Source: Eledone cirrhosa (lineage: Eukaryota). From it: a DNA stretch of 64,000 bases. Below, one piece after another: positions 7,251-62,226 of the stretch (position 1 is its first letter; every line of letters starts with the position of its first letter). The stretch spans positions 63,488,001 through 63,552,000 of the forward strand of contig OZ024745.1 of assembly GCA_964016885.1 (NCBI GenBank), written 5' to 3'. The notes under the pieces were generated by a model. That model was given only the letters and a program-made list of their open reading frames with translations, was not told the DNA's origin and searched no databases. Made by a program: the position numbers and the translations under genes.

Positions 7251-8664
7251 ACTAGTCCTCTATGTAGACATTTTTGTGGGGGGGGGGATTCATGCTTATT
7301 AATTTTTATGTAACCTAAAGAAAACTTCGACTTTAAGCAATGCTATTAAGTTAATTGCAGTTTCAGTCGACATTGAGTGAATAACTCGTTTTGGTTGCAG
7401 TTGTCTGAACTAAGTAACAACGTTGATAATTAACAAAAGGGATATAACTCGTATAATACTAATATCTATAAGGGAGATAACTGAAAGGGGAAATAATTCT
7501 TTTAGAGAATTTAAAAACAATTATTTCATGTTGAATACTATTTTCCCGCTGAACACAAATATGTACTTCATTCTTCCTTGAGGCTAACTTGGTTACAGTT
7601 ATATACGCCGTACAGAAAATGAAGCTTCGTATTAATTAAATCTCATTCATTTCCGTTGCAAACATCGCCAGAATGACGTGACCATTATAACTTGTTGAAA
7701 GAAATAGGAAAAAAATTTACTGAATGAATTAGATTGACAATTATTTGTTTAGTTTGACTTTTTGAAATTTTAAATTGTTTTAAATTTTTTTTTTTTTTTT
7801 TTTGTATGAGGTCGGCGGGATGGTGGCTTTTTTCCTCCCCTACCTTTTTGGGGGTTTTCATATTTATATAAATTTTACCGTCAGACTGTCATCTGAAAAC
7901 GGTTTTGTTTTTCGTTGTTTTTTATGAAATACATTTTTTTTCTATCAATTACTTATTAGGATTAAGGAATTTACAGGTGGAAAGCTTTGTTTGTTTGTTT
8001 TTGTATACGAAAAGCATTTCGTTTCGTTTGTCTAAATATATTTTGTAAGCATTGGAGACCATAGGATGTTTCATATTCTAAAAGTTTTAAGTATAAATTT
8101 ATATACAAGAAAAGTTATTACTGTTGCCAATCCCATATATCTAATTATATACAAGAAAAGGTATTTCTGTTGGCAATCCCATATGTCCAATCAATTTTGT
8201 TATCTATTATTATCTTTTCATGATTCTGTTTCTCTGATCTTTGATAAATAAAAATCCTAAGAGTTAAAAATACAAAACCATCACAAAATAGTTAGAGTGT
8301 GTGGTAAATATCAATACTGAAATGAGAAATGTCCCCAAAATGTTTGAAACAGTTTAGTCTACTAATTACTTTTATTGGGTTTGCAAAGTAATTTCATATG
8401 ATGAAATATTGTAATATTGTGTAATTGGTTTATTATCATTTATATATATATATATTATTAAAATAACAGATTAAAGTTTAAGTAAAGAATAGCTGCTTTC
8501 ACCCTTAACAGGATCTTCTGAAACTAAAAAAATCAATCTGTGAATGCAGAAGTAATATACTTATATATATATGTATGTAAAAAGTAAACAGAAATAGGAA
8601 CACAATCGGTACAGTATATGGAAGGTATATATTAGGTTAACACTTGATATATTCAGCAAGAGGG

Positions 8665-8700
8665 TCTTAACGTTTCGGACGCTAGTCCTTCATCAGAAGA
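8665..8700 (-). ncRNA. 36-nt minimal hammerhead in a pLTR remnant (~8560-8705)
   Basis: ucuu CUGAUGA a ggac-uagc-gucc GAAA c GUU aaga; AACGUU palindrome. The downstream part matches window positions 1-37. Confidence 0.8.
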
Positions 8701-18988: not shown

Positions 18989-19337
18989 GGGCGATGGGTT
19001 GGGGGTATCGGTAGCGCGTCGGACACCGTACTTTGCAGCACAGGGTTACGTCTCTTTACGTTCTGAGTTCAAATCACACCAAGGTTAGCTTTGCTTTTCA
19101 TCCCTACAGGGTCGATAAAATAAAGTACCACTAACGCACTGGAATCGATTTAATTGACTTTCCTCACCCCCAAAATTGTTGACCTTGTCCCTAAATCAGA
19201 AACCATTAGAGGTTAGCTTTGCTTTCCATCCTTACGAGGTCGATAAAATAAAGTAACAGTAACGTTCTGGGGTCGATTTAATTGACTTTCCCTTTCCCCA
19301 TAAATTGCTGGCCTTGTGCCTGAATCTGAAACCATTT
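18989..19337 (+). mobile_element. tRNA-derived SINE (family A) with tandem duplication of its 3' ~125 bp
   Basis: Body and tail occur twice (19082-19207, 19210-19337). Confidence 0.85.
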
Positions 19338-19806
19338 ACGAGAAACCAATACTACTAAAATAAGGGACACAACTTAATTTTGTTGAAAAAAACGAACAAC
19401 TCATCTATGTCTATGATATATTCTTTTATTTCTTAATTTCTTCTCAGTTCGTTTTATTTGGTACATACTAAGACAAATATTATGCTTATCATTTAGATTA
19501 AATTATTTAATAGTGGCTCAGCGGATTCAACGGGGATATGAAGAGATCGAATACTACCTAATTGATACGGTCTTGATTAAATATGATTTGACTTTTTCGA
19601 TAATACAGGGAGCTAACTCCGATTTTTCTCACATAATTGTTTAGCTGTTTTGAACGTATATTTAAATACCTTTACAAGAAATCTAATAAATATTATTCTT
19701 TAATATACTTTATAGAACTCCTGTTTATCATTTAATGAATTCTGCATAATTTATACTTAATTTCATTTTTCATTTCATTTTAAATTAGAGAAAAGTGGCT
19801 AACTGT

Positions 19807-19966: not shown

Positions 19967-20027
<61 letters not shown>

Positions 20028-20029
<2 letters not shown>

Positions 20030-20855
20030 GTACATACATATATGTATACAGACGTACAGTAGTATGTATATATATACATACATGCACACACATATATATA
20101 TATCTACGTATGGGTTTACCGAACATTCAATATAATGCTCGGTTTGTTTGAATTAGGCCGTACAGTGTTCAGGCAACCATCGTCGCCTTTTTGTTCAACA
20201 CTGACACAGGAACGATGTACTAGTTTCAAGCTTATTAGCTATCGTAAGCGTCGTATACCTTCCTGCCAGATGATTGAACGTCTGAAAGTATATACTTTCC
20301 TTATGCATATTAACGGCTGAGCAGCCTAATTTGCATATCGAGTGAGTTAATCGGCCGGGCGCACCGAAAACGATAAATGGAAAAGAATGAAATGAAATGA
20401 AATTTCTCACTCTTAGTACGGCTGATACTTAAATGTAAGTATGTATGTATACGTACATACATATATGTATACAGACGTACAGTAGTCTGTATATATATAC
20501 ATACATGCACACATATATATATGTACGTATGCGGTTACCGAAGGTATACGATGCTGACGATAGCTAATAAGCTTGAAACTAGTACATCGTTCCTGTGTCA
20601 GTGTTGAACAAAAAGGCGACGATGGTTGTCTGAACACTCTACGGCGTAATTCGGGCTGTTTGTTTACAAACAAACCGAGCATTATTATAAATGTTCGGTA
20701 AACCCATACGTACATATATATATGTGTGCATGTATGTATATATATATATACATACTACTGTACGTCTGCATACATATATGTATGTACGTATACATACTTA
20801 TATTTAAGTATCAGCCGTACTAAGAGTGAGAAATGAAATTTCGTTTCATTCTTTT

Positions 20856-20860
<5 letters not shown>
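20028..20860. mobile_element. Diverged member of the same retrozyme family: ~1.2 units on minus (20028-20540) joined to ~0.75 unit on plus (20541-20860)
   Basis: Colinear similarity to the 420-bp unit; embedded in (TA)n. Confidence 0.88.
20548..20590 (+). ncRNA. Minimal type I hammerhead ribozyme
   Basis: acgaug CUGACGA u agcu-aaua-agcu u GAAA cua GUA caucgu. The minus-strand copy at ~20213-20255 has a damaged core (CUUACGA). Confidence 0.9.
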
Positions 20861-20891
<31 letters not shown>

Positions 20892-21193
20892 AATGAAATA
20901 AAAACAAAGGACAGGTTCCTTATATTGAAAAATTCATCATTTTACGATCATTTCTGGGATATATATGTGTGTTGGTATGTATATCATGTTAAAGATCTAT
21001 GTAAAAATTATTACAAATTATCAGAGGAGATATACATACCTATATATGCCATCTTCAGAAATGATGAAGTATGTTTATTGAAAGAATTAATACAAAAATA
21101 TACCACCAACGCATCAAAACAACCATAATAATACTAAAATAAACCAAAAAAAGACCACCTTCTTCTTCACCTATAATAAACTCCACACCAATT

Positions 21194-21810
21194 TTGACTA
21201 ATAATCTCCAAAAGAAACAGTACTCTACTAGCTACACATCCCCTAAACTATCACCCACCAACAACCTGTCTAACCATACTAACCTAATTACAACCCATTC
21301 TAAACCATACATTAATGAAAATAGTAACACTAAAACCACTATAGGTAACACAATTAACTCTCTTGATACAATATTTATGAATGGCTGTAACTGTAGAATC
21401 AAAAGAAATTGCCCATTAAAGGGAAATTCTCTTATTAATAACATAGTCTATAAATGTGTAATTATTACTAAGGACTCCACTCAATCCTATATAGGAGCTA
21501 CGTCTAACCAATTTAAAGTAAGATTTAATACCCACAAACATAGTTTTAAAAATGTCGCATTAGCTAATACAACCTCCTTGGCTGAAGCAATTAATAATTA
21601 TAGAAAGAAGGATATTGCTTACAACCTAACCTGGAGTGTGCTCAAAAGGGCCACCCCTTATCAAAATAGCAGATATGAGTGTAGGTTATGCTCCCAAGAA
21701 CTATTTGAGATCATGAAATCTAATGATATCCTATTAAATAAGCGACAGAAGTAATTATATCATGCAATCATAGAATTAGAAAAACCTTCAAATATTATAA
21801 ACTTAATTAA
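21194..21810 (+). pseudogene. PLE GIY-YIG endonuclease fragment with a 1-nt frameshift near the C-terminus
   Basis: CNCRIKRNCPLKGN, NIVYKC...SYIGATSNQFKVRFNTHKHSF, CRLCSQE, LLNKR, continuing in another frame as EVIISCNHR...KLN*. Confidence 0.88.
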
Positions 21811-22527
21811 TATATACCTCACTCTTATATTTTACAAATTATTATAATTAATTTCTAAAAAAATTTTTAATTTAGTGAACCTCTCATTAAATATTTACTA
21901 CAAAGAATTTCATAATTTTATTTCCCTCTTGCAGCTCACTTTACCTAAAGTTATCTTTAACCTCACTACTTCTTTTAACTGCATCTCCTATCTATCACAT
22001 TTAATACCTAGGATTAGTAAATATAATTAATATCTTTAATATTATGGATATTTAGATAGAAACAATACTTTTTATAAAAAAAATTTCTATTTCAGTTTCT
22101 CTCTCTCTATATATATATATATATTTTTTTTTTTTACTTCTTTATTTATCACATTCATAAGAATTAATATAATTTTAACTCTGTAAGTATACCTATCAAT
22201 TAATTTAATTTCCTTTTATGTTATCTAGGTTCCTTGAAATTTAAACAGGAGTAGTATTTCTCACTAACACTCTCATCCCACAAAAAATTCTTTTCCCTTC
22301 GCTTTTAAGAGCATTCTTTAATAACATCCTTCACTATCTCATTGACTTGACATCATTTCTCTTCCTCATTGTATTCTTTTCATTCAAAGCATAAATTTAC
22401 ATTCCTCCACTCCTAGCATAAAATTTCTACTACTGTTATTCTATCAACTTGACCTCTAACTTTTTCTATTGGTCAATTCAAAACCGACTTTTTGTATTAA
22501 TACTTTGTTTCTTTCAATAAACATACT

Positions 22528-22668
22528 TCATCATTTCTGAAGATGGCATGTATATGTGTAGGTATGTATATCTCCTCTGATAATTTGTAATATTTTTTTA
22601 CATAGATCTTTAACATGATATACATACCAACACACGTATATATCCCAGAAACGATCGTAAAATGATGA
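22528..22668 (+). ncRNA. Type I hammerhead with ~100-nt stem II in pLTR (inverted copy at 20934-21067)
   Basis: ucaucauuu CUGAAGA u gg...cc a GAAA cgauc GUA aaaugauga; 9-bp stem I; palindrome ACGAUCGU. Confidence 0.9.
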
Positions 22669-22863
22669 TTTTTTTTCAATATAAGGAACCTGTTCTTTGT
22701 TTTTATTTCATTGTTTTTATTAATTGATCTTGTCTCTGTTTTCCTATGATTTTTATCGTTAAATTTTGAATGCATTTTCTCTTTTCATGAAATCTTCTAT
22801 ATTTGGATTACATTGAGTTCTTCATACGGATTGGACACTACCGTTTATTTTGGTAGATTGATC

Positions 22864-22897
<34 letters not shown>

Positions 22898-22902
<5 letters not shown>

Positions 22903-23362
22903 TGAAATAACAGATTAAAGTTTAAGCAAAGAATCGTTGCTTTCACCCTTAACGGGATCTTCTGAAACTAACAAAGTCAATCTGTAAACGCAGAAGTGGA
23001 TATTTCAAAAAACATTGCAACCGGAGGAAGACAGGAAGACGCGCGTAATTGTTTTTCAACCCTCCTATTAATGACGTATCTTATTCGTTTTTTCCCGTTC
23101 TTTGCCAGCGAACGTTTCCACGAACCAAAGTATCGTCTTCCTGTCTTCCTCCGGTTGCAACGTTTTATGAAATATCCACTTCTGCGTTTACAGATTGACT
23201 TTGTTAGTTTCAGAAGATCCCGTTAAGGGTGAAAGCAGCGATTCTTTGCTTAAACTTTAATCTGTTATTTTAATAAATATTTGCTCTACGGTTCTTATAT
23301 ATTTGATATATATTTATCCTTATCGAGCCCTCTTTGGATTTTAGTCTTGAAATTTATTATTA

Positions 23363-23367
<5 letters not shown>
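22898..23367 (+). mobile_element. pLTR-like fold-back repeat with hammerhead-like CAGAAGA motif (23206-23256)
   Basis: 22898-23040 is an inverted copy of ~23136-23278; homologous to 12662-13060, 8455-8550 and 16050-16200. Confidence 0.8.
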
Positions 23368-23459
<92 letters not shown>

Positions 23460-23633
23460 ATATTAAATAAATGGAAACTATATTTTTAAAACCATATTTA
23501 TTCTATTACATATATTTCAAGGCTACTAAAACTTTGCCACGCTTTCATCAGATAAAATGCGAAGTATGTTTTATAAATTTTGACATAACCAAGGAAAATA
23601 CCTTAACGGTTCAAGTTTTCCTTACACACTTCG

Positions 23634-23694
23634 TATTTTATCTGATGAAAGCGTACCAAAGTTTTGGTACCCTTGAAATATATATAATAGAATA
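23634..23694 (+). ncRNA. Type I hammerhead in a pLTR remnant (23455-23820)
   Basis: uauuuuau CUGAUGA aagc guacc-aaaguuuu-gguac ccuu GAAA uauau AUA auagaaua; inverted partial copies at 23460-23570. Confidence 0.8.
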
Positions 23695-23832
23695 AATATG
23701 GTTTTATAAATATAGTTTCCATTGAATATTATACTCCAGAAAACTGTCGAGTGCTCTGAATCAGTTATAAACATTTATATTTGTTGAATTACCAACAACT
23801 TGAATATCCCTTCTGCTTATATATATATATAT

Positions 23833-24378
23833 AAATTAATAAAATAATGAATAAACAAAGAAACAGTTCCTTATATTAAAAAAATTCATCATTTTACGAT
23901 CGTTTCTAGGATATATATGTGTTAGAGTTGGTATGCATATTCTATAGATCTATGTACAATATTTATACAAACTATCAGAGGGAATATACATACCTACACA
24001 TATATAAACAGACCTATTGTATTGAATCTTTGTTTTTTTTCAATAAATAAATATCATTATTTCTGAAGACAGCATATATATGTGTAGGTATGTATATTCC
24101 CTCTGATAGTTTGTATAAATATTGTACATCGATCTATAGAATATGCATACCAACTCTAACACATATATATCCTAGAAACGATCGTAAAATGATGAATTTT
24201 TTTAATATAAGGAACTGTTTCTTTGTTTATTCATTATTTTATTAATTTATCTTGACTCTGTTTTCCGTTTATTTTTCACCGAAAGTAGTTTTTGAATGCA
24301 TCTTCTCTTTTCATATCCGGATTACATTGAGTTCTTCATACGGATTGGACACTACCGTAAACGTTTGGTAGATTTATC

Positions 24379-24382
<4 letters not shown>
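23833..24382 (+). mobile_element. Solo pLTR related to 22497-22868, with 5' inversion; hammerhead at 24055-24194
   Basis: CTGAAGA 24063, GAAACGATCGTA 24175-24186; 23833-24005 is an inverted copy; same 3' end sequence as 22790-22868. Confidence 0.85.
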
Positions 24383-24451
<69 letters not shown>

Positions 24452-24453
<2 letters not shown>

Positions 24454-24588
24454 CGAAGGAAATGTGGTAAGGAACCAGATGGACCATAACGCACCAAAGT
24501 ACTCAATACTTAGGGGAGTAGAGTGGGTAATAGGAACAAGTATGACCCGACTGCAGAGCTCAAGCCGTTTCGACGGCTAATTCTGAGT

Positions 24589-24590
<2 letters not shown>
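24452..24590 (-). mobile_element. Left part of a third copy of the palindromic element; right arm at 28016-28059
   Basis: 24548-24590 is the reverse complement of 28016-28059 with one mismatch. Confidence 0.8.
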
Positions 24591-24631
<41 letters not shown>

Positions 24632-24778
24632 TATTTTCCGTTGTGTTGTAATATAAATATTACACACAGTAGATTATCAGCTCACGTAGAGTTTGCTCGA
24701 CGGTTCCAGTTGTAGTTCCAAAAGTAATCCGGAGAAAAATAGAAAGATTTGAATGGATACAGTTTAGTTGAAAGGAAT

Positions 24779-24898
24779 TTATTGACACGTGTTTCTATAA
24801 CAGTTACATAACCTAAAACAGCTGCTATCTACAAACTTTTAGTTATGCAGACATTCAACATTTCAATGTTATTATTTACTGTCATTTCATCAGAATAA
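24779..24898 (-). ncRNA. Type I hammerhead with long stem II in PLE pLTR
   Basis: uuauu CUGAUGA a augacagu...acuguuau a GAAA cacgu GUC aauaa; palindromic stem III ACACGUGU. Confidence 0.85.
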
Positions 24899-25454
24899 TA
24901 TTACTGAGGACCTATTTAGTTTTTATAGAGAATATTAGGAGGGAGGGGTGAAGTTGTTAGAAGAATAGTTGAAGGAGTGGTTTTTCGATAGCAGTGAGAA
25001 TTCTTGGTGGCAGTGAGTAATTAGATTCCCATCTGTTGTTTTGACATTTTTTATAGAATATATTATTGGTTATTTTTCTAAATCTATAGAAGGATTAGAG
25101 ATAGTAAAGATATGCGTGGTTGGTTTTGTGTTTGCACTTAATTAACATTCAGACTTAAATTTTTCTTTCAAGTGTACGTATCCTTTCACCCACGCATTCA
25201 CAAACAAATATATTTGCACACCTCTACAAAATACATATACTCACAATTCACATATTCATACTTACATATATATACACATGCATACACATATATATACACA
25301 CATGTATTCATGTACATACATACGCGCTCATGTGTATACATTTTCATACTCAACTTACCTTTATATACACACGTATAGACACACACATATATACATACAT
25401 ACTCTAGTCCATGTGTACACACATACACATACATACACATCCATATACACATAT

Positions 25455-27360: not shown

Positions 27361-27808
27361 GAAAATGTATACACATGAGCGCGTATGTATGTACATGAAT
27401 ACATGTGTGTATATATATGTGTATGCATGTGTATATATATGTAAGTATGAATATGTGAATTGTGAGTATATGTATTTTGTAGAGGTGTGCAAATATATTT
27501 GTTTGTGAATGCGTGGGTGAAAGGATACGTACACTTGAAAGAAAAATTTAAGTCTGAATGTTAATTAAGTGCAAACACAAAACCAACCACGCATATCTTT
27601 ACTATCTCTAATCCTTCTATAGATTTAGAAAAAATAACCAATAATATATTCTATAAAAAATGTCAAAACAACAGATGGGAATCTAATTACTCACTGCCAC
27701 CAAGAATTCTCACTGCTATCGAAAAACCACTCCTTCAACTATTCTTCTAACAACTTCACCCCTCCCTCCTAATATTCTCTATAAAAACTAAATAGGTCCT
27801 CAGTAATA

Positions 27809-27928
27809 TTATTCTGATGAAATGACAGTAAATAATAACATTGAAATATTGAATGTCTGCATAACTAAAAGTTTGTAGATAGCAGCTGTTTTAGGTTATG
27901 TAACTGTTATAGAAACACGTGTCAATAA
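27809..27928 (+). ncRNA. Inverted-pLTR copy of the same hammerhead
   Basis: CTGATGA 27814-27820, GAAA 27912-27915, GTC 27921-27923. Confidence 0.85.
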
Positions 27929-27960
27929 ATTCCTTTCAACTAAACTGTATCCATTCAAAT

Positions 27961-28017
<57 letters not shown>

Positions 28018-28311
28018 ACTCAGAATTAGCCGTCGAAACAGCTTGAGCTCTGCAGTCGGCTTAATACGGGATGTTTGTTTAGAAACACTCCGAGCATTAT
28101 AATAAATGTTCGGTGAATCCATACGTACATATATATATGTGTGCATGTATGTATATATATATACATACTACTGTATGTCTGTATACATATATGTATGTAC
28201 GTGTACACACTTATATTTAAGTAACAGCCGTACTAAGAGTGGGAAATGAAATTTCGTTTCATTTTTCCTGTTTATCGTATTCGGTGCACCCGGCCGATTA
28301 ACCCACTCGAT

Positions 28312-28319
28312 ATGCAAAT
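28312..28319 (+). promoter_or_regulatory. Octamer motif ATGCAAAT in the retrozyme unit (also 28732, 29156, 29998; mutated at 29576)
   Basis: Exact octamer about 73 nt upstream of each hammerhead core; also present in the diverged copy near 20327-20334 (minus strand). Confidence 0.45.
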
Positions 28320-28385
28320 TGGGCTACTCAGCTGTTAATATGCATAAGGTAAGTATATACGTTCAACAATCTGGCAGGAAGGTAT

Positions 28386-28428
28386 ACGTTGCTGATGATA
28401 GCTAATAAGCTTGAAACTAGTACAGCGT
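28386..28428 (+). ncRNA. Minimal type I hammerhead ribozyme, array unit 1
   Basis: acgttg CUGAUGA u agcu-aaua-agcu u GAAA cua GUA cagcgu; palindromic stem III ACUAGU; predicted cleavage after 28422. Confidence 0.92.
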
Positions 28429-28805
28429 TCCTTTGTCAGTGTTGAACAAACGAGCAACGATGGTTGCTGGACACTACGGCTTAATACGGGATGTTTGTTT
28501 ACAAACACTCCGAGCATTATAATAAATGTTCGGTGAATCCATACGTACATATATATATGTGTGCATGTATGTATATATATATACATACTACTGTATGTCT
28601 GTATACATATATGTATGTACGTGTACATACTTATATTTAAGTAACAGCCGTACTAAGAGTGGGAAATGAAATTTCGTTTCATTATTCCTGTTTATCGTAT
28701 TCGGTGCACCCGGCCGATTAACGCACTCGATATGCAAATTGGGCTACTCAGCCGTTAATATGCATAAGGTAAGTATATACGTTCAACAATCTGGCAGGAA
28801 GGTAT

Positions 28806-28848
28806 ACGTTGCTGATGATAGCTAATAAGCTTGAAACTAGTGCAGCGT
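28806..28848 (+). ncRNA. Hammerhead, array unit 2 (GUG triplet, predicted non-cleaving)
   Basis: Same motif, but ctagtgcagc instead of ctagtacagc. Confidence 0.85.
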
Positions 28849-29229
28849 TCCTTTGTCAGTGTTGAACAAACGAGCAACGATGTTTGCTGGACACTACGGC
28901 TTAATACGGGATGTTTGTTTACAAACACTCCGAGCATTATAATAAATGTTCGGTGAATCCATACGTACATATATATATATATGTGTGCATGTATGTATAT
29001 ATATATACATACTACTGTATGTCTGTATACATATATGTATGTACGTGTACATACTTATATTTAAGTAACAGCCGTACTAAGAGTGGGAAATGAAATTTCG
29101 TTTCATTTTTCCTGTTTATCGTATTCGGTGCACCCGGCCGATTAACCCACTCGATATGCAAATTGGGCTACTCAGCCGTTAATATGCATAAGGTAAGTAT
29201 ATACGTTCAACAATCTGGCAGGAAGGTAT

Positions 29230-29272
29230 ACGTTGCTGATGATAGCTAATAAGCTTGAAACTAGTACAGCGT
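29230..29272 (+). ncRNA. Hammerhead, array unit 3
   Basis: Intact motif, cleavage after 29266. Confidence 0.92.
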
Positions 29273-29649
29273 TCCTTTGTCAGTGTTGAACAAACGAGCA
29301 ACGATTGTTGCTGGACACTACGGCTTAATACGGGATGTTTGTTTACAAACACTCCGAGCATTATAATAAATGTTCCGTGAATCCATACGTACATATATAT
29401 ATGTGTGCATGTATGTATATATATATACATACTACTGTATGTCTGTATACATATATGTATGTACGTGTACATACTTATATTTAAGTAACAGCCGTACTAA
29501 GAGTGGGAAATGAAATTTCGTTTCATTATTCCTGTTTATCGTATTCGGTGCACCCGGCCGATTAACGCACTCGATATGCTAATTGGGCTACTCAGCCGTT
29601 AATATGCATAAGGTAAGTATATACGTTCAACAATCTGGCAGGAAGGTAT

Positions 29650-29692
29650 ACGTTGCTGATGATAGCTAATAAGCTTGAAACTAGTACAGCGT
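29650..29692 (+). ncRNA. Hammerhead, array unit 4
   Basis: Intact motif, cleavage after 29686. Confidence 0.92.
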
Positions 29693-30071
29693 TCCTTTGT
29701 CAGTGTTGAACAAACGAGTAACGATGGTTGCTGGACACTACGGCTTAATACGGGATGTTTGTTTACAAACACTCCGAGCATTATAATAAATGTTCGGTGA
29801 ATCCATACGTACATATATATATGTGTGCATGTATGTATATATATATATACATACTACTGTATGTCTGTATACATATATGTATGTACGTGTACATACTTAT
29901 ATTTAAGTAACAGCCGTACTAAGAGTGGGAAATGAAATTTCGTTTCATTTTTCCTGTTTATCGTATTCGGTGCACCCGGTCGATCAACCCACTCGATATG
30001 CAAATTGGGCTACTCAGCCGTTAATATGCATAAGGTAAGTATATACGTTCAACAATCTGGCAGGAAGGTAT

Positions 30072-30114
30072 ACGTTGCTGATGATAGCTAATAAGCTTGA
30101 AACTAGTACAGCGT
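30072..30114 (+). ncRNA. Hammerhead, array unit 5
   Basis: Intact motif, cleavage after 30108. Confidence 0.92.
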
Positions 30115-30377
30115 TCCTTTGTCAGTGTTGAACAAACGAGCAACGATGGTTGCTGGACACTACGGCTGAATACGGGATGTTTGTTTACAAACACTCCGAG
30201 CATTATAATAAATGTTCGGTGAATCCATACGTACATATATATATGTGTGCATGTATGTATATCTATATATACATACTACTGTATGTCTGTATACATATAT
30301 GTATGTACGTGTACATACTTATATTTAAGTAACAGCCGTACTAAGACTGGGAAATGAAATTTCGTTTCATTTTTCCT

Positions 30378-30433
<56 letters not shown>

Positions 30434-61675: not shown

Positions 61676-62010
61676 ATAAATGTACATTTTTCATAAAGAA
61701 GTTGCTTAAATCTTTATGACAGTTAAACGTATGTATCTTTATATTTTTTTAATACACAATTTTTTATCTGATTATATTTGTTTATGTAAGAGTTTTTCCA
61801 GTTTTTCTGTTTTCATATTCTTTTCCGTTCTGTTTAACAAAATTTTTCTTTTTTGGAGGTCATCAAAGTACATTGACAAACGAACAACCACATAACGCAG
61901 ATACGGACATATGCTGTTGCATACGCACACTTATTTGAATATGAATATTACAATATATATCCTATCAGTGGGGTTAAGAACCCTCGGAGAAATGGAAAAA
62001 GATGAGTATT

Positions 62011-62076
62011 GACGTACATGGGAGTCGAACACACATCTTTGGTTATCCAGACCACTGTGCTACCATTTACACCAAC
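62011..62076 (-). pseudogene. tRNA-like sequence (pseudo-tRNA or SINE head) inside 37-bp inverted repeats (61967-62003 / 62093-62129)
   Basis: tggtgtaaatggtagcac (A box/D arm), tggt-ctggata-acca arm, gttcgactcc (B box); acceptor stem not convincing. Confidence 0.55.
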
Positions 62077-62226
62077 ACATTTTTTCAACAAAATCTTTTT
62101 CCATTTCTCCGAGGGTTCTTAACCCCACTATCATGCTAAATAATTTCTTTAATTTCTTTAGTCAAAATACGGCGATAACATTTATAATAATTTCAAACCC
62201 GCTCGCCGATTCTAAAATATTATTAC

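Follow-up and report, generated by a model that had tools for sequence, protein, structure and literature searches.

How does an animal retrozyme RNA return to DNA as two arms that lie back to back? This question is raised by an insertion at positions 20028–20858 of the window, the 64,000-nt stretch of a contig of Eledone cirrhosa (OZ024745.1) that was analysed here. A minus arm of 1.2 units and a plus arm of 0.75 unit of a ~420-nt type I hammerhead repeat are joined in it. We consider it probable that this is one animal-retrozyme insertion with fixed arm ends in TA repeats, for which a borrowed Penelope-type enzyme started reverse transcription at both cut ends of the DNA, using a different fixed point at each. 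Taken by itself, the locus is ordinary, and its value is the family-wide rule described below.

Layout of the insertion at 20028–20858

Unit positions are numbered from the first base 3' of the predicted cleavage site. The inverted arm (20028–20542, minus strand) spans ~1.2 units, from unit position 109 to 420 and then from 1 to ~203, and its left (3') end belongs to a class of ends that we call S1. The direct arm (20540–20858, plus strand) spans ~0.75 unit, from 376 to 420 and then from 1 to ~270, and its 3' end is of the S2 class. These arms confirm the coordinates and the inverted layout of the original prediction. The arms meet head to head at 20540–20542, where they share a 3-nt microhomology (GAA). 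Both outer ends adjoin (TA)n, with the left tract at 19971–20028 as the putative target of the S1-primed arm and the right tract at 20859–20888 as that of the S2-primed arm. A target-site duplication is unreadable here because the flanks are pure TA. The S1-to-S2 segment (20803–20858, plus strand, ~57 nt), with a hairpin at 20830–20850, forms a tail on the direct arm, and the 3' end of the inverted arm stops short of it. The S1 end at the left (~203) lies ~10 nt inside the main S1 peak.

Each arm carries a hammerhead motif. That of the direct arm (20548–20590, plus strand) is intact in sequence, with stem I ACGAUG/CAUCGU, core CUGACGA, a stem II of U-U plus AGCU/AGCU, stem III AC-UA-GU and predicted cleavage after 20584. 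In the inverted arm the motif (20212–20254, minus strand) is decayed: G5 is replaced by U in its core, CUUACGA, and stem I contains a C-A mismatch. A tandem array at 28057–30383 (plus strand) contains 5.5 units of ~420 bp of a younger subfamily of the same retrozyme family; it is single-armed, ends at S2 and is partly ABAB-periodic. Its stem I is ACGUUG/CAGCGU and its core CUGAUGA, and the predicted differences between array and plus arm in both elements were found as described. The plus arm was also said to end at almost the same unit position as the array; it ends ~4 nt before the array end, and both are S2 ends.

The retrozyme family and its hammerhead motif

The family consists of short non-coding tandem units in high copy number without LTRs, as in the 5.5 repetitions of the 420-bp unit in the window. 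Consecutive units adjoin directly in head-to-tail order with a period of ~420 nt, and no ORF for a reverse transcriptase plus GIY-YIG is present. An exact search of the 3.0-Gb genome with the 25-nt ribozyme core gave 12,525 matches (control, 0), a minimum for the number of cores present, and a second motif gave 27,368, including longer subfamilies of 466–502 nt.

A type I hammerhead is found in each unit, with a stem I of ~6 bp, a stem II of 4 bp and a short palindromic stem III, and over 72 distinct copies 95.9% of the cells are paired. The motif agrees with the layout given for canonical metazoan type I hammerheads in the accessible part of PMC4209133, in which stem I has 6 bp, stem II 4 bp and stem III 2 bp with a palindromic loop. 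The canonical G10.1-C11.1 pair at the base of stem II is absent. Most copies have U-U there, and an older subfamily (L184, L194, L196), which has U at position 17, has C-A or C-G. The axolotl ribozyme HHR_Amex2 has the same U-U and still cleaves, weakly, according to the available text of PMC7229834. Among 100 cores, CUGACGA is the majority state (86/100) and CUGAUGA occurs in 4/100, so that at this position the array at 28057–30383 has the minority state of that sample. Among the 150 of 207 matches listed in an Rfam scan of the window, no hammerhead family was found, and the miRNA-family matches were rejected as TA-repeat noise. The predicted circular monomer is highly self-paired, with z-scores of −5.7 to −8.9 against 40 dinucleotide shuffles each for three references, one of which is a composite of the two arms of the 20028–20858 locus.

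A sister retrozyme family (L154–L183, L076, L018, L050) has a unit of 466 nt and is 69% identical to the ~420-nt family. It is very young, as many copies are 100% identical over 186 nt; it retains the same stem III palindrome and has compensated stems I and II. Related sequence also occurs in contigs of two other organisms. Among rare variants family-wide, sense-strand A-to-G changes exceed T-to-C changes (100 vs 63, p 0.028), which we regard only as a weak hint of RNA editing scars.

Arm ends cluster at two fixed sites

The main sample was made of the first 100 core matches along one contig, which represent 73 loci taken in order of position and regardless of their ends. Arms shorter than 40 nt, below 75% identity or cut at the edge of the fetched DNA were excluded. 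The 3' ends fall at two sites, S1 and S2, ~57 nt apart and with a hairpin between them. Among 117 arm ends, 50 are at S1, 53 at S2 and 14 elsewhere. The last informative base lies at 195–212 for S1 and at 246–272 for S2, and the true ends at ~203–217 and ~264–273, respectively. The exact position of S1 is blurred because it lies at the edge of the TA-rich part of the unit. The two windows cover ~14% of the unit and hold 103/117 ends (binomial p 6e-72), and 92/103 of these ends run into (TA)n, compared with a background of ~15%. The 3' ends that were expected to be non-random are therefore confined largely to two windows in this tabulation. Other sets gave similar fractions at S1 or S2, namely 23/26 and 38/45 in two sets chosen by similarity and 39/46 in a set chosen by another motif. 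Single-armed loci make up about half of the total, and most of them have no (TA)n at the 5' side (37/60).

The original prediction assumed one preferred priming site on the RNA, selected by annealing to a (TA)n target. It is partly supported. Non-random 3' ends, (TA)n targets and short microhomology at the junctions are borne out; the number of sites is not, because there are two of them and an inversion takes one of each. The proposed mode of selection fails as well. The longest TA runs of the unit (127–136 and 150–161) are rarely ends, accounting for 4/117 calls at 126 or 149, and S1 and S2 provide no more than ~2–6 nt for annealing. Therefore, position rather than best annealing sets S1 and S2.

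The explanation closest to that prediction is L1-style twin priming, in which one preferred 3' site is used and a second primer anneals wherever the RNA is TA-rich. The location of S1 at the end of a TA-rich hairpin, the microhomology of 2–6 nt at junctions and the displaced left end of 20028–20858 all agree with it. However, besides the disuse of the longest TA runs, single-armed loci of the position-ordered sample use S1 and S2 equally (13 vs 15), and 38/41 S2 arms extend past S1, with scattered 5' ends that do not halt at the other primer. Moreover, stubs of Penelope-like elements (PLEs) without such TA runs have the same two ends. We accordingly regard twin priming of this kind as very unlikely and favour priming at two fixed sites.

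Inverted loci pair one S1 end with one S2 end

Inversions with the tail outward make up 38/73 loci of the position-ordered sample. Three sets together contained 61 inversions, of which 43 combine S1 with S2, one combines S2 with S2 and 17 have an end elsewhere; a further set chosen by another motif gave 11, none with the same site twice, and three with an end elsewhere. Two local duplicates, found in L062 and as L210, and a doubtful arm of 24 nt in L066 were dropped, and the final count was 51 S1+S2 loci against one same-site locus among 52 classifiable inverted loci (p 1e-14). At least one end lies outside S1 and S2 in 20/74 inverted loci (17/61; 3/14). The sister family follows the same rule. 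All 13 distinct inverted loci with both ends readable pair S1 (228–233) with S2 (301–302), one further inverted locus having run off the fetched DNA.

The tail layout with S1 and S2 in 51/52 inverted loci supports the idea that the inversion at 20028–20858 is of the PLE type. As a family-wide rule, S1+S2 pairing offers a solid and testable lead on how Penelope elements and retrozymes integrate.

Origin of the two arms

When all arms are ranked by haplotype, the partner arm of the same locus has a median rank of 1.9% and falls in the top 10% in 33/40 cases. Rare variants are common to both arms ~11 times more often than between loci. The close haplotypes and the common rare variants indicate that both arms of one locus come from one source. 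Later gene conversion may also have made the arms alike.

A common haplotype would equally be expected if a single priming event had occurred and the first cDNA, or an antisense template, had then been copied into the second arm by fold-back or self-priming. For rotifer PLEs, the accessible part of PMC3846280 describes self-priming as a proposal based on palindromic junctions. At 24/41 loci one arm could nest in the other, and short fold-back arms are found in L008, L035, L040 and L066. However, at the other 17/41 loci, 20028–20858 included, neither arm can be templated by the other, since each holds sequence that the other cannot supply. The arm lengths are uncorrelated (rho 0.004), and the sister locus L173 has target microhomology at both element ends, where a 13-bp duplication and the element share 5 nt (S1) and 4 nt (S2). 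Fold-back as a general route is thus contradicted by the non-nested loci and is unlikely, and it may account for a minority of short arms. Separate priming of the two arms on one source remains our preferred explanation.

Target-site duplications are visible only in interrupted targets, where they measure 13–14 bp, and they were found in 4/59 true flank pairs compared with 0/394 swapped pairs. At several insertions an interrupted TA tract carries on to the left and to the right of the element; therefore, those targets existed before the insertion.

The 5' ends of the arms are scattered and are not piled up at the cleavage site, where 5/120 lie in a sample biased by selection on the core and 0/59 in further copies. 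A linear cleaved monomer is therefore not supported as the template, and either a circle or an uncut multimer is indicated. Both forms fit the data alike, as do one RNA and two RNAs of one source.

Selection on the RNA of transposing copies

The difference in stem I between the two loci had been taken as covariation caused by selection on ribozyme structure. Among the 72 distinct copies, this pair is A-U in 30, U-G in 28, G-U in 9, C-G in 1, U-A in 1 and unpaired in 3. These pair states are subfamily states and hence represent few events. The count of pairs changed on both sides was 3, not above the 2.8 of shuffled data (282 of 500), and single-pair covariation was rejected as proof of selection. 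With the core left free in the pattern, subfamily-level variants were seen by eye at N7, 10.1/11.1, loop II, H17 and stem I.

Broader tests of pairing gave a different result. Common inherited variants keep pairing in 16/22 cases, compared with 112/435 for rare variants (Fisher p 1e-5); the structure used was folded from one real copy, of which one failure is an artefact, and CpG decay to G-U inflates the figure for common variants. Common variants are also rarer in paired columns (16/147 vs 27/126, p 0.02). The pair 240/301 is A-U in 41 copies, G-C in 33, G-U in 4 and other in 4. Between the sister family and the 420-nt family, 48 predicted pairs are common, of which 8 have changed on both sides, 2 on one side and 38 on neither. 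Taken together, the broader tests and the sister family point to selection on the whole RNA of transposing copies, and this selection seems to act on the whole fold across subfamilies. Of the predicted selection on ribozyme structure, pairing-preserving change in the family is supported; the stem I change is a subfamily marker. Since the ribozyme of the minus arm of 20028–20858 is decayed, selection acted on the source elements and not on this genomic copy.

A process at the DNA level would need no RNA template. In such a process, recombination or slippage between TA tracts would spread and trim a satellite-like repeat, and the inversions would be secondary. The ends adjoin microsatellites that are able to erode junctions, some arrays have a period-2 structure, and local duplicates exist (L058, L062, L210). 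However, the process leaves unexplained an S2 end that is fixed although no more than TTTAT overlaps there, the occurrence of the S1+S2 rule in two families, the target-site duplications and the pairing-preserving change across the unit. We consider it highly improbable and retain an RNA-templated insertion.

Penelope-like neighbours and the candidate enzyme

A Penelope-like insertion of the same layout lies directly to the right of the locus (20889–22866, plus strand). It comprises an inverted arm (20889–21098), a GIY-YIG-like frame with a CxCX5C linker (21152–21751) and a one-sided tail (22716–22866). Co-insertion of 20028–20858 with this element was ruled out because the PLE has its own inverted arm and tail. 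Three more inverted stubs with one-sided tails follow at 22895–24381 (22895–23366, ~23455–23815 and 23831–24381), with (TA)n between them. The region 20889–24381 thus contains four successive inverted one-tailed Penelope-like insertions separated by (TA)n, as in a chain of elements inserted into each other's TA flanks. In the fetched DNA, each of the five inverted pairs of PLE stubs has one short and one long end.

The family of the neighbouring PLE is abundant, with 55,889 first-look candidates. Its translations have traits of the Hydra clade as described in the available sections of PMC8557442, namely the CxCX5C linker, CxxC and CxH flanking E and N, a C-terminal GIY-YIG and insertion into (TA)n. 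Pfam gave GIY-YIG only (E 0.027) for this element and no match for its reverse transcriptase part. A comparison of the unit with 19 PLE loci of one family gave no sequence homology, apart from a retrozyme fragment inserted in L107, and the partner enzyme is therefore deduced from layout and target. The unit bears a weak likeness to PLE tail hairpins (TACT..GAGTG), which the sister family retains only poorly. According to the accessible text of PMC8557442, families of both the Hydra and the Naiad type in octopus target (TA)n. The partner enzyme of the retrozyme family is probably a Hydra- or Naiad-type PLE.

Comparison with known systems

Metazoan non-LTR retrozymes and their proposed link to PLEs have already been published (Cervera and de la Pena 2020, PMC7229834; Li, Clavereau, Pollet 2026, bioRxiv 10.64898/2026.07.22.740005). 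As far as the available portions of these papers go, the present family resembles those retrozymes in its tandem units, which are non-coding, a few hundred bases long and equipped with a single type I hammerhead, its thousands of copies, its self-paired predicted circle and its co-occurrence with PLEs. In the same portions, mobilisation by PLEs is proposed without insertion anatomy, whereas the E. cirrhosa family shows fixed paired ends, inversions and (TA)n targets. The words 'inverted', 'microsatellite', 'octopus' and 'cephalopod' are all absent from the text of PMC7229834 that was available. In contrast to the Xenopus families, the ~420-nt unit gave no match to a PLE terminal repeat among the PLE loci compared.

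Insertions of endonuclease-positive PLEs have an inverted pLTR and often a tail at one end, according to the accessible parts of two studies (Craig et al. 2021, PMC8557442; Arkhipova et al. 2013, PMC3846280). The retrozyme shares with the insertions described there the head-to-head, inverted 5'-truncated arm, the tail at one end, the microsatellite targets and a similar duplication length. It differs from them in having no ORF, in a tail of ~57 nt (~70 nt in the sister family) compared with 30–40 nt in PLEs, and in arms that are circular permutations of one unit and often longer than one unit. The one-sided tail, termed 'often' or 'optional' in those parts, is a counted, near-strict rule in the retrozyme.

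For the anole Poseidon PLE, the sections available of an in vitro study (Frangieh et al. 2024, PMC11167929) report that two internal start sites define the tail, that both strands are cut and extended and that a dimer is predicted. They also report AT-rich targets and insertion without a need for hammerhead cleavage. In those experiments the start sites did not differ between the strands, and cut DNA and start site had no homology; in contrast, the two ends of a retrozyme insertion take different sites, with short microhomology.

In the openly accessible literature that was searched, which for PMC7229834, PMC11167929 and the bioRxiv preprint meant the main text, neither the ends of retrozyme insertions, nor a retrozyme from a cephalopod, nor a count of S1+S2 pairing was found described. 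Retrozymes, one-sided tails and two start sites are already published; the S1+S2 pairing rule was not found in that literature.

A model for two-ended integration

The literature, in the parts available, leaves two questions, which are the origin of inverted one-tailed PLE insertions and the return of animal retrozyme RNAs into DNA. The insertion anatomy supports the proposal that retrozymes use Penelope machinery, and the following course may be envisaged. Source copies would be transcribed into a highly self-paired RNA, either circular or an uncut multimer, as the predicted fold suggests. The reverse transcriptase-endonuclease of a PLE, probably of the Hydra or Naiad type, would make a staggered cut in (TA)n. 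At the observed positions, and in the observed combination, one target 3' end may anneal over a few bases to S1 and the other likewise to S2, with the tail hairpin between them, and prime there. The two cDNAs, whose lengths vary and which mostly cross the cleavage site, may then be joined head to head by microhomology. This course sits less easily with the inverted loci that have an end outside S1 and S2, the one S2+S2 locus, the many single-armed loci, the lack of homology to the PLE loci compared, the blurred position of S1, the missing G10.1-C11.1 pair and the in vitro behaviour of the anole enzyme.

More tentatively, and with somewhat less than even confidence, we suggest that a Penelope dimer sits on one circular retrozyme RNA at the tail hairpin with one target end on each side, and that both subunits copy the same circle with strand displacement. 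If this is true, such two-ended rolling-circle retrotransposition would explain retrozyme tandem arrays as well as inverted one-tailed Penelope insertions in general. With its two mapped start sites, of which an inversion almost always takes one each, the 420-nt non-coding unit is a small and exact in vitro substrate for both questions.

Other observations

The inverted arm contains the putative octamer-like motif ATGCAAAT at 20329–20336 (minus strand), which is kept in the retrozyme family and the sister family. At that place and in every array unit, TATGCAAATT is found; it is present in 126/148 segments and in the sister family. We assume that TATGCAAATT may be an octamer-type promoter element, a role for which a literature search gave no support.

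Period-2 (ABAB) variants are strong in one array (L058:1283–3219; odd-lag difference 3.8%, even-lag 0.5%) and partial in the array at 28057–30383. Every second unit of L058 has a stem I mismatch, as expected of a dimer circle cut at one ribozyme only. Such arrays were rejected as proof of a dimer circle, since the pattern is clear in L058 only, weak or absent in six other arrays, and explained equally by DNA duplication. The array unit at 28841–28842 has G at position 17 (GUG), presumably a poorly cleaved triplet. At its 5' end the array is joined to ~40 nt of another repeat (28017–28058; also at ~24445–24590, minus strand), which adjoins retrozyme ends in L008, L021, L050, L087 and L118 as well. 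The similarity between 24545–25200 and 27500–28057 does not mark an empty site of the array, a reading that was ruled out by the differing flanks on the right.

A separate, minimal hammerhead-like motif at ~8660–8700 (minus strand) lies beside a (TA)n tract and is probably another PLE end. SINE-like repeats occur at 19000–19340, and we take those of the window to resemble octopus SINEs. A tRNA-family Rfam match at 62010–62081 (minus strand) scores above the gathering cut-off.
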